Virus record (IMG/VR): IMGVR_UViG_2531839374_000020
Length of the DNA: 29,761 bases
Source: a virus
Taxonomy: Duplodnaviria > Heunggongvirae > Uroviricota > Caudoviricetes
Strand: one strand, 5' to 3'
This document shows positions 9,001-12,000 of the stretch, one piece after another. Within the stretch, counting starts at the first letter, position 1; the number at the start of each line of letters is the position of its first letter. Position numbers: made by a program.

Positions 9001-12000
9001 ACGCATGCTTTTCGGTTCCGGCTCCACCAGTACCCGGGTATTGTGGAATACCGGCATGGATTCACGGCCTGGCTTAAGGACCACCAGCCCGAGTTCCGGA
9101 ACCAGAACAGGTCGAAGTAATACCCGCACATTACCTCCAGATCCGTTGCTGGAATGTGCAGGACGGACGCGGTGGCCGTTCGGAATAAGGGAGCCTGACG
9201 AAGATTATCCAGTGACGATAATCGAGACTGAGGGCTTTCTTAATCTCGTATCCGTGTCTGCGGTAGCGCTGAATCAGCCATTCAGCCTGTTCTTCGGTGC
9301 AGGGGTCGTGCTGATACCAGTCAGATTTGAATGCATGAGAACGCCGCCCGTGCCTGCTGGCAGGCGCGGCAGAGTTATCCGAATTGTAAAATTTGGTATC
9401 GTGCGCCATCTGTTTTCTCTGCTGGCGCAGCAGGTGCCAGTTGTTCAGGCTGACGGATGGATTGTAAACCAGAACGACCAGAAAAAACAAAACCCGCCGA
9501 AGCGGGTTAAGTGCGGGTGCGTTGAGGATGCCTGACACATCAGCGGTGGCGAGGGATTTCTCCCCCGCCGGGTCTCTTACTCCTCAGGTTCGTAAGCTGT
9601 GAAGACAGCGACCTCCGTCTGGCCGGTTCGGATTCGTACCTCGCAGAGGTCTTTCCTCGTTACCAGTGCCGTCACTATGACGGTTAAACAGATGACGATA
9701 AGGGCGATTAACATCGCCTTTTGCTGCTTCATAGCCTGCTTCTCCTTGCCTTTCGGCACGTAAGAGGCTAACCTACATGTGTTCAGCATGGATTGAGCCT
9801 CAGATTAATGTTAAGCGTCTTGCAGGACGCGTAATGTTAACTGGGGCTTTTCTCTATCTGCCTTTTGGTGTTCATGCCTGAGACAGATAGCCTCAAGCAC
9901 CCGCAGTCATTCTACTTAACTAAGATTTCCCTGCAAACCGTTTTTGTCCGGCACAGTAAATATCCAACTAAACCAATAGCGTTCGCTGTATTTACCGCCA
10001 GTATTCAATGCACATGACCGCCATGAACACCCCTAAAAAAGGGCATTTATATGTCCAAACATTAATATCAAAACATCAATTTTTTCCATATACCTTGCTG
10101 TGAAGATGATGGGCATACATGATGCGAACAACCAGAACGCAACAAACAAAAACTGCAATGCGTTTTTCATTATTCCCCCTACAATCAATGTGCAATAACA
10201 TTTAAACACACCTCAATTTGGCCGGACATATAAATATCTAAACCAGAAAAAATCACTTACATAGCGTTACAAACTCTTTAGTCTAAATACTCATCGTAAA
10301 ACATTCCCCATACTTATCAGTCCGTTCCGCGCCAGGTAGCTTATTGCCTTATCTGGCAACCTATAATCAGGTTTCCGCTTTTTCAGTTGGCTGGTCGTTT
10401 AACCGACATAGTTAACCCATTAATCTGGTTGCCGGATGCTGGTGGATTTTCGCGTTTTAGTTGTTCATAAAAGTGCACAGCTTTAACCAGTTCTTCTGAT
10501 GTAACCGGGACTGGTGGGGCAGTGAATAAGGCCTGAATTTCATAGTTCGGCCTGTCGTTACAATCCTCTTTTTTCGGTACATATTTCCAGTCACCAACCC
10601 ACAACTCCCCCTGAGAGTCCATAACACCTTTTTTCACGTAGCGATATCGCCACGCTATCGGCTCTGCTTCCAGCGATGCCCGTGCAATTTTGAATAACTC
10701 GCCCTCTACTCGCGCCATCCCTGAATTGGGGTGGCATTTCGTAATCGCTATTTTTAATTTGGCTTCTTCGATTAATTGTTCTTTTGTTAATTCAGTCATT
10801 TTCATTACCGCCCTTTCAGGCGGCCTCCTGATGTTCTGAGGGTGCAGAAATCCCTCCGGTTAAGGATTAAATTTTATTTGCTGTGCTAAATTTAATTATT
10901 CAGTTTTTATTCCTGCTCTCAAAACAGCCTCTGCCATTCTGATATCCGGATTTTCTGAAATCATCTTTTCCGGCGAGTCGCAATCACCACCACATTCAGT
11001 TATGCGTTCATGACCAAAACGAATTGTGGTTTTGTGCGCATTAATCATTTGTGTAAGCGCATCTGTCAATTCTGCAATGCGTTTGTCTTTAACTTCCAGC
11101 TCTTTCAGTAAAGCCAGTACGTCAGGAGCGCTAACATCAACGACGGTTACGCGCGATTTCAGGTAATGCTCATCCGCAAAAGTTCGACCAGTTTTAAAAT
11201 ATCCATCATCCCCCTCACCTGTGCAGGCATACACAATATGCGTTCTGGAAAATATGCGCTGTATCGACATTTCATCGCCACAAACAGGACATTCCGGCAC
11301 CTGAATTGGTGAATAACGTTCACGTAATGCCTGGTAATTAGTCTTGCACACTGGCTGTCTCCTGAAAAATCACCGCATGCCCCAGTTTCTCCGCCAGCGC
11401 CAGTTTCTCCGCCAGCGCCAGTTCTGCCTTAGCGCCTGCTGACCGCTGCCAGCCTTTCAGCATGTAAATCGCATCCACACAACGAATCATCGCCATGCAG
11501 ATATCCATGTACTGCGGCTGTGTCAGCCCGTCCGGAAGTACTGCCGGGTTTAAGACGGTATGCCCTTCCCGTTTCAGTTCCTCTTCCGCATTGTGAAACG
11601 CCTCACGGTTGAAATTTTTATACCCGGTCATTGGACCGGCGATATAGACTCTCACCCTCACGCCATCACCTCCTGAAAATTACCCTGATAAAACGACAAT
11701 ATGCGCTGCATAACTTCGCTCTTCCGGCACTCGCGACAGATTATGTTTAGGCGACTGTCGTAGCGACGTATTTCTCCGTCAGGTAATGACCAGATAAGGT
11801 CCGGATCAACCGCAGATGGTTTCTTCAGCTTTGCCCTTGAGAGCTTTTTACGGGCATTTTGCCAGTCCTTACGCGCCTGTTCAGACGGGAATAACCCGTA
11901 ACCAGAGTTGTATACATCGCCACTGGCAACCAGCTCTCTGGCCAGAACGCTCATCAGATATCTTGTTGCCCCAGTTTTAGCTTCCAGTTGTCGTAACGTC

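Follow-up and report, generated by a model that had tools for sequence, protein, structure and literature searches.

Closest described systems

The nearest characterized relative of the locus described here is hokW-mokW-sokW (hokW-sokW) of the Stx2 phage VT2-Sakai, i.e., Sakai prophage 5 (Sp5; AP000422.1), whose record annotates mokW, hokW, and a 71-nucleotide (nt) "SokW antisense RNA." In this toxin-antitoxin system, HokW arrests growth, SokW expressed from its own promoter neutralizes HokW, and promoter mutations abolish the protection (Takada 2021, PMC8621323). RNase III and Hfq contribute partially, and both RNAs are detectable (PMC8621323). Upon induction with mitomycin C, SokW disappears, and HokW builds up in the inner membrane, dependent on RecA; with hokW-sokW present, lysis comes ~40 minutes earlier and the phage yield is doubled (PMC8621323). 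Three further references are hokD (relF) in the Qin prophage of Escherichia coli K-12, hokC/mokC/sokC (gef) of K-12, and the plasmid-borne hok/mok/sok (parB) of R1, which has a demonstrated role in post-segregational killing. The enrichment of hok in prophages has already been documented (10.1101/2025.08.07.668861). Here, we analyze a complete hok/mok/sok locus of the hokD/hokW subtype on the minus strand, at 9937-9481, of the IMG/VR virus record IMGVR_UViG_2531839374_000020 (Caudoviricetes), a stretch of 29,761 nt that is referred to as a whole as the window. We put the probability that this locus is a complete, bona fide type I toxin-antitoxin system working by the family mechanism at about 0.88.

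Identity and architecture of the locus

Two profiles match the locus, one at the toxin and one at its mRNA leader. At 81.6 bits, well above the cut-off of 22, all 42 positions of Pfam PF01848 (HOK_GEF) aligned with the C-terminal 42 residues of the toxin open reading frame (ORF) (E = 3e-23). An Rfam search, which a previous sequence-only reading of this DNA had proposed as a check, placed the whole 157-position model of RF01794 at 9902..9727 on the minus strand; the 118.9 bits far exceed the gathering score of 59 (E = 8.5e-27). These E values rule out a chance ORF. The NCBIfam Hok-subfamily and HokA models gave only sub-threshold matches (48.5 against a cut-off of 73) and were set aside in naming the gene. 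K-12 HokD/RelF (WP_000813254.1) and the Hok protein of the window have the same sequence. The elements of the locus are as follows (SD, Shine-Dalgarno sequence; A1, the four-way alignment).

9909..9937, minus strand: hok/mok promoter-like site, sigma-70-like, with TTTGCA (9937-9932), a 17-nt spacer, and TAGAAT (9914-9909); promoter scan.
9483..9902, minus strand: predicted full-length hok mRNA, ~420 nt, from Rfam model position 1 to the terminator.
9891..9902, minus strand: 5'-terminal element "tac," GGGUGCUUGAGG, pairing with 9527-9515 in the minimum-energy fold and invariant in A1.
9854..9890, minus strand: 5' leader hairpin, CUAUCUGUCU (9890-9881) with AGGCAGAUAG (9863-9854); Rfam consensus helix 1 and minimum-energy fold.
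9764..9801, minus strand: Sok-target hairpin holding the mok SD and AUG, with the loop CUGAACA (9786-9780); Rfam consensus helix 3.
9577..9789, minus strand: mok reading frame, 70 codons, in frame with hok; ORF list.
9742..9747, minus strand: hok SD AAGGAG, 9 nt before the hok AUG, invariant in A1.
9577..9732, minus strand: hok toxin gene, 51 codons plus stop; Pfam HOK_GEF; RefSeq annotation hokD.
9515..9527, minus strand: 3' fold-back element "fbi," CCUCAACGCACCC, complementary to the mRNA 5' end, with C9521 bulged.
9481..9508, minus strand: intrinsic terminator, AACCCGC-UUCG-GCGGGUU plus a T-run; terminator scan.
9746..9774, plus strand: Sok promoter, with -35 TTGCCT (9746-9751), a 17-nt spacer, and -10 TAACCT (9769-9774); homology.
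9781..9851 (to 9857 by sokC), plus strand: Sok antisense RNA candidate, ~71 nt (71-77); annotated sokW and sokC mapped onto the window.

The sequence-only reading had claimed a complete locus in prophage DNA, and all the elements it listed were recovered on the minus strand, no more than a few bases from where it had placed them: the 51-codon Hok/Gef-family toxin, its in-frame mok-like extension, the UUCG-tetraloop terminator, and a leader resembling that of hok mRNA, which it had put at 9875-9897 and which we find as GCUUGAGGCUAUCUGUCUCAGG at 9898..9877. The traits of the family (a Hok ORF, an overlapping mok, at the sequence level an antisense Sok gene, a homologous leader, 5'-3' pairing, and a target hairpin) are present together.

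The promoter-like site lies 7 nt upstream of the first Rfam model position, with a predicted transcription start at ~9902. The VT2-Sakai and Rac-SA53 loci share its -10 hexamer; hokC has TATAAT there. In the target hairpin, the mok SD (GAGG, 9801-9798) stands 8 nt before the mok AUG (9789-9787), and the loop opens with CUGA, fitting YUNR. A U-turn (YUNR) loop that lets Sok bind fast, on a hairpin in which the mok SD and AUG are displayed, was reportedly described by Franch et al. in 1999.

The mok start at 9789 coincides with the annotated starts of mokW and mokC, and residues 1 to 19 of the mok product are identical to those of MokW. The mok frame is in register with hok here, as it is in the hokW and hokC loci, whereas in the R1-type locus (L160) it is in the +1 frame; a 70-residue Mok-Hok fusion is therefore expected from the mok AUG. 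Besides, all four aligned loci have the same UACG motif (9591-9594, minus strand; A at 9593), which holds the codon of Hok Tyr47. According to a preprint (10.1101/2025.08.07.668861), A-to-I editing by TadA recodes that tyrosine to cysteine in the hokC, hokD, and hokE mRNAs, and the corresponding predicted editing site is preserved in the window copy.

Comparison with hokW, hokD, hokC, and R1

The four-way alignment puts 9789 at the mok start, 9732 at the hok start, and 9577 at the stop codon of both the VT2-Sakai and the K-12 hokC locus, without any offset. The closest of the references, hokW-sokW, matches the window with 93.2% identity across 92% of the locus. The two do not differ in the hok -10 hexamer, in tac, in the SD and AUG of mok, in the Sok -35, spacer, and -10, in the hok SD, or in fbi. 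One difference falls in the Sok transcript region, in the hairpin loop, and four fall in the 5' leader hairpin region, where the stem pair at 9883 is U.G in the window and C-G in VT2-Sakai. The proteins share 47 of 51 residues, with all four substitutions (T45V, A46D, P49S, and E51K) near the C terminus, whereas the sequence 3' of fbi, terminator included, is unrelated. Each locus belongs to the early region of its lambdoid prophage, and mok is in frame with hok in both; Sp5, in contrast to the element in the window, is a functional Stx2 phage. Since the regulatory elements match those of the functionally tested hokW-sokW, toxin-antitoxin activity of the window copy is likely.

The relationship to K-12 hokD is of another kind. 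The Hok proteins are identical, and 9746..9483, comprising the hok SD, the coding sequence, fbi, and the terminator, is 98.5% identical, but in the K-12-type hokD, relB-relE replaces everything upstream of 9746, so that the hok promoter, tac, the mok start, and the Sok gene are missing. Downstream, K-12 hokD and the window hok are alike, with a small hypothetical gene followed by DUF968. We considered whether the window copy could be the K-12 relBE-hokD arrangement and ruled this out, because the homology ends at 9746 and a full leader is present instead; the ORF list and a Pfam scan of the window revealed no relBE directly upstream of hok. RefSeq gives WP_000813254.1 as HokD both in a 100%-identical record and in the relBE-linked locus. 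Thus, the window locus is the un-rearranged form of K-12 hokD.

An alignment with hokC/sokC, likewise suggested by the sequence-only reading, placed mokC, hokC, and sokC in register with the window. The architecture is the same, mok is in frame, sokC maps to 9781..9857, and the proteins are 82% identical. In K-12 hokC, an insertion sequence (IS), IS186, lies ~20 nt past the hok stop, and the 3' fbi partner was not found (rows L108 and L088); the family comparison likewise found no 3' partner of the 5' element in IS-disrupted hokC copies. The statement in the sequence-only reading that the chromosomal K-12 hok loci are mostly inactivated agrees with the truncation of K-12-type hokD to 9746..9483 and with IS186 immediately downstream of hokC. 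R1 has the same elements in the same order, and its Sok promoter is at the same place, although its Hok is only ~40 to 46% identical to the window Hok.

Pairing of the mRNA ends and its covariation

In the minimum-energy fold of the 420-nt RNA 9902..9483, nt 1 to 12 (9902-9891) pair with 9527-9515 through 12 base pairs. We examined this pairing in a comparative set of 79 loci drawn from one-genome-per-species contigs (40 to 100% Hok identity) together with phage and plasmid loci. Where the 5' element has a homolog, its best partner on the 3' side is, in nearly all loci, 41 to 57 nt past the hok stop. For the covariation test, a MAFFT alignment of 40 distinct rows from Escherichia, Kluyvera, Photorhabdus, plasmids, and others was used, and rows without a 3' partner were kept in. 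The tac/fbi pairing was realized in 83% of the cells, against 33 to 54% when the partner was slid by 1 to 3 columns, and an alternative register of the pairing gave the same picture. Five tac/fbi pairs showed changes on both sides; pair 4-76, for example, is C-G in 17 rows, U-A in 17, U-G in 1, and other in 5. Indeed, whole subfamilies differ by coupled changes: GGGUGC/GCACCC in the window, hokD, hokC, and Kluyvera corresponds to GGCGC/GCGCC in Photorhabdus and in R1 and R1-type plasmid loci, and further coupled variants are GAGG/CCUC versus GAGA/UCUC, as well as GAAG/CUUC. Fbi and the terminator together fill the last ~45 nt of the mRNA, a geometry compatible with 3' processing.

The Sok antisense gene and the meaning of RF01794

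The position and spacing of the Sok promoter are kept across 69 distinct sequences of the family, including R1 (TTGCGC, 17 nt, TATCCT). The sequence-only reading had placed a Sok-like promoter over the mok start; the promoter is indeed present, although it lies past that start, inside mok codons 6 to 15, and it is the candidate transcript rather than the promoter that spans the mok AUG and SD. Moreover, mapping of sokW and sokC leads us to expect an RNA of ~71 to 77 nt in place of the ~55 nt suggested earlier. In the predicted fold of the candidate Sok, the first 14 nt form a single-stranded 5' tail, followed by a long terminator hairpin and then UUUU; the energy is -30 kcal/mol (z = -5.0), and none of 200 shuffled sequences folded as well. 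Complementarity to this 5' tail is found in the target hairpin 9801-9764, both in its loop and along its 5' stem side. Loci of the hokD/hokW type carry 16 to 18 extra nt (ACGCGUCCUGCAAGACGC, within 9802-9844 of the window) relative to hokC and the Rfam consensus, and this stretch lengthens both the Sok terminator hairpin and its sense-strand counterpart; against hokC, the excess in the window is 18 nt.

The Rfam family RF01794 is named "sok antitoxin (CssrC)," yet what it matches is the hok-coding strand, from the mRNA 5' end to the hok start. The transcript cssrC was detected in Shigella flexneri 301 as a sense-strand Northern band of ~340 nt ending at a predicted terminator (PMC3071730), and its source is probably the equivalent locus in that strain. 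Because the match is on the hok strand and cssrC is a sense transcript of this length, the model represents the hok leader, not the ~70-nt antisense Sok, whose sequence is the reverse complement of the model's central part. For the same reasons, the Rfam match was ruled out as the Sok gene itself. Strand calls made with RF01794 must therefore be inverted to locate Sok.

Proposed mechanism

For Sok transcription, 3' processing, toxicity, and biological role, we infer from the family model how the locus would operate. Transcription from the promoter at 9937-9909 would yield a stable hok mRNA of ~420 nt, whose first 12 nt pair with 9527-9515, and the closed full-length RNA would be both untranslatable and inaccessible to Sok. 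Slow trimming of the 3' end would open this closure, whereupon the leader would refold and display the mok SD and AUG in the hairpin 9801-9764. Ribosomes starting at mok would then read on into hok, so that hok translation would depend on mok translation. As long as the short-lived, ~71-nt Sok (plus strand, 9781 to ~9851) is made, it would pair with the mok start region, resulting in a translation block and cleavage of the duplex. Once Sok synthesis stops, the 51-residue Hok would enter the inner membrane, and the cell would be arrested or killed.

Prophage context

The neighbors of hok encode a RecE-like exonuclease, DUF977, Ead/Ea22, a YdaT-like protein, and DUF968. This neighborhood is 99.3% syntenic with a Rac-like prophage, in which the early region runs on to RusA, Q, lysis, and head genes. 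The locus occupies the early ("nin") part of a lambdoid prophage of Rac-like type, now decayed, on a Shigella/E. coli chromosome. The following features surround it.

7153-8330, plus strand: IS3-family element (orfA and orfB), truncating the DUF968 gene (8371-9129) at ~8370.
13789-14486, minus strand: IS1 transposase, beside the YdaT-like gene in the immunity region.
17000-18036, plus strand: integrase, split into two ORFs and adjoining tRNA-Ser(CGA) at 18064-18153.
2739-6935: tail-fiber genes, directly following the IS3-cut end of DUF968, with an IpaH-type effector.

Since Q, a lysis cassette, and head genes are absent from the window prophage, DUF968 is cut by an IS element, IS1 is inserted, and the integrase gene is in two pieces, we do not expect the prophage to be induced or to release phage. 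The placement of the locus inside a prophage by the sequence-only reading thus holds as far as the DNA is concerned, but the element is a non-inducible, IS-riddled remnant.

Three further features of the window were observed. Beside the tail-fiber genes, a gene for an IpaH-type type III effector (LRR_TTSS plus an NEL E3-ligase domain) at 915-2559 on the plus strand is split into the overlapping ORFs 915-1349 and 1294-2559, which may make it a frameshifted pseudogene. The Shigella small RNA CssrB (RF02799) is matched at full length with 227 bits (609-788, minus strand); it is flanked by this gene and by a methyltransferase-like ORF (16-600). In the interval 19998-27334 on the plus strand, a very large inverse-autotransporter/invasin-like ORF encodes 1827 amino acids with IAT_beta and ~12 Big_1 repeats; it is apparently interrupted by an IS3-family element with an ALIL frameshifting pseudoknot (26178-26294, minus strand), and more Big_1 is found at 26669-27334.

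Distribution

A 601-nt query matched 4962 of 5426 complete E. coli genomes, and in 2800 of these the match covered at least 80% of the query. One record, in which the gene bears the RefSeq name hokD, is 100% identical, and over 1433 nt the window shares 99.65% identity with a locus on a Shigella flexneri chromosome. Of the 80 viral contigs whose Hok is identical, 71 have the complete locus including the terminator and 3 show the K-12-type truncation. Since so many of them carry the whole locus, the window holds the common, un-rearranged form, and the intact prophage copy is not the novelty that the sequence-only reading had implied. Indeed, the locus is already annotated (RefSeq hokD), its near-identical copy hokW-sokW has been characterized, and it is of an already known kind, with nothing that departs from known biology.

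Loci identical to E. coli hokD or R1 hok were also observed in assemblies labeled Veillonella, Acinetobacter, Xanthomonas, Streptomyces, Ferruginibacter, and Oscillibacter (L100, L110, L117, and L160-L162). The contigs are all shorter than ~5 kb except for a 23-kb Veillonella contig (L100), and these loci most likely represent E. coli or cloning-vector contamination, not true hosts.

Biological role and alternative explanations

Several points weigh against a working system of the family type. A consensus promoter scan of the plus strand missed the Sok promoter, whose -10 hexamer TAACCT matches TATAAT at only 3 of 6 positions; the promoter was therefore placed by homology only. The duplex energy of the tac/fbi pairing is not decisive for the hokD group, since 3 to 21 of 100 mononucleotide-shuffled 3' untranslated regions were equally good. 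This test does not discriminate because a GC-rich target of 230 nt often offers some 12-mer match, and it was therefore replaced by the test of position and covariation given above. The minimum-energy fold of the 3'-truncated mRNA gave the 5' hairpin only, with no specific textbook alternative pairing. Furthermore, in work cited in 10.1101/2025.08.07.668861, intact chromosomal hokA, hokB, and hokC have been reported to show neither post-segregational killing nor a response to rifampicin, and a complete structure is therefore no guarantee of activity. Finally, without Q, lysis, or head genes in the window prophage, the sole role demonstrated for hokW-sokW cannot apply.

Taking the evidence together with these points, we consider it most likely that the locus is a retained, probably still active selfish module in the remnant, which may also stabilize the island. 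The addiction or phage-exclusion role proposed by the sequence-only reading is possible, but it differs from what the nearest characterized relative does, since hokW-sokW aids lysis and phage release on induction (PMC8621323).

A different explanation is that the locus is a structurally intact, physiologically silent relic, transcribed without Hok ever being released in meaningful amounts, the remnant being recent and the module hard to lose. The decay of the surrounding prophage (IS1 and IS3-family insertions and a split integrase) would fit this, and so would the finding that deletion of hokW-sokW has no growth phenotype in the absence of induction (PMC8621323). However, all the regulatory elements are preserved and identical to those of a copy shown to be active, complete loci outnumber truncated ones by 71 to 3 among the viral contigs with an identical Hok, and the family-wide compensatory change in the 5'-3' pairing indicates continuing selection on RNA function. 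We regard a silent relic as unlikely.

A more specific form of the retained, active module would be an addiction device that now shields a virulence-associated island against deletion by IS elements, the process that is eroding the prophage elsewhere. An IpaH-type effector gene and the CssrB small RNA lie ~7 kb from the hok locus in the same element. We judge this to be quite doubtful; if true, it would be a role different from the lysis assistance of hokW.

Abortive infection is an explanation that we hold to be similarly doubtful. A lytic phage that shuts off host transcription would deplete Sok, and Hok would abort the infection. Prophages often carry defense genes, and, as cited in PMC8621323, high-copy R1 hok-sok cut the T4 plating efficiency by 42% and the plaque size by ~85%; on the other hand, this effect was weak and needed a high copy number, and a 2026 survey did not find hok enriched near defense systems (10.1101/2025.08.07.668861).

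That the locus serves as a lysis-timing helper, in which loss of Sok on induction lets Hok damage the membrane early and more phage is released, as reported for hokW-sokW and in keeping with the same genomic position in related prophages (the early region upstream of DUF968, RusA, and Q), is very improbable as a present function, since the window prophage has no Q, lysis cassette, or head genes and is not inducible, so that this can only be an ancestral role.

Implications

The locus matters little beyond annotation, being one more copy of a module that occurs in ~90% of complete E. coli genomes. It does show the un-rearranged ancestor of the truncated hokD of K-12, and it illustrates that such modules stay whole even when a prophage remnant has lost the functions for which they are known.

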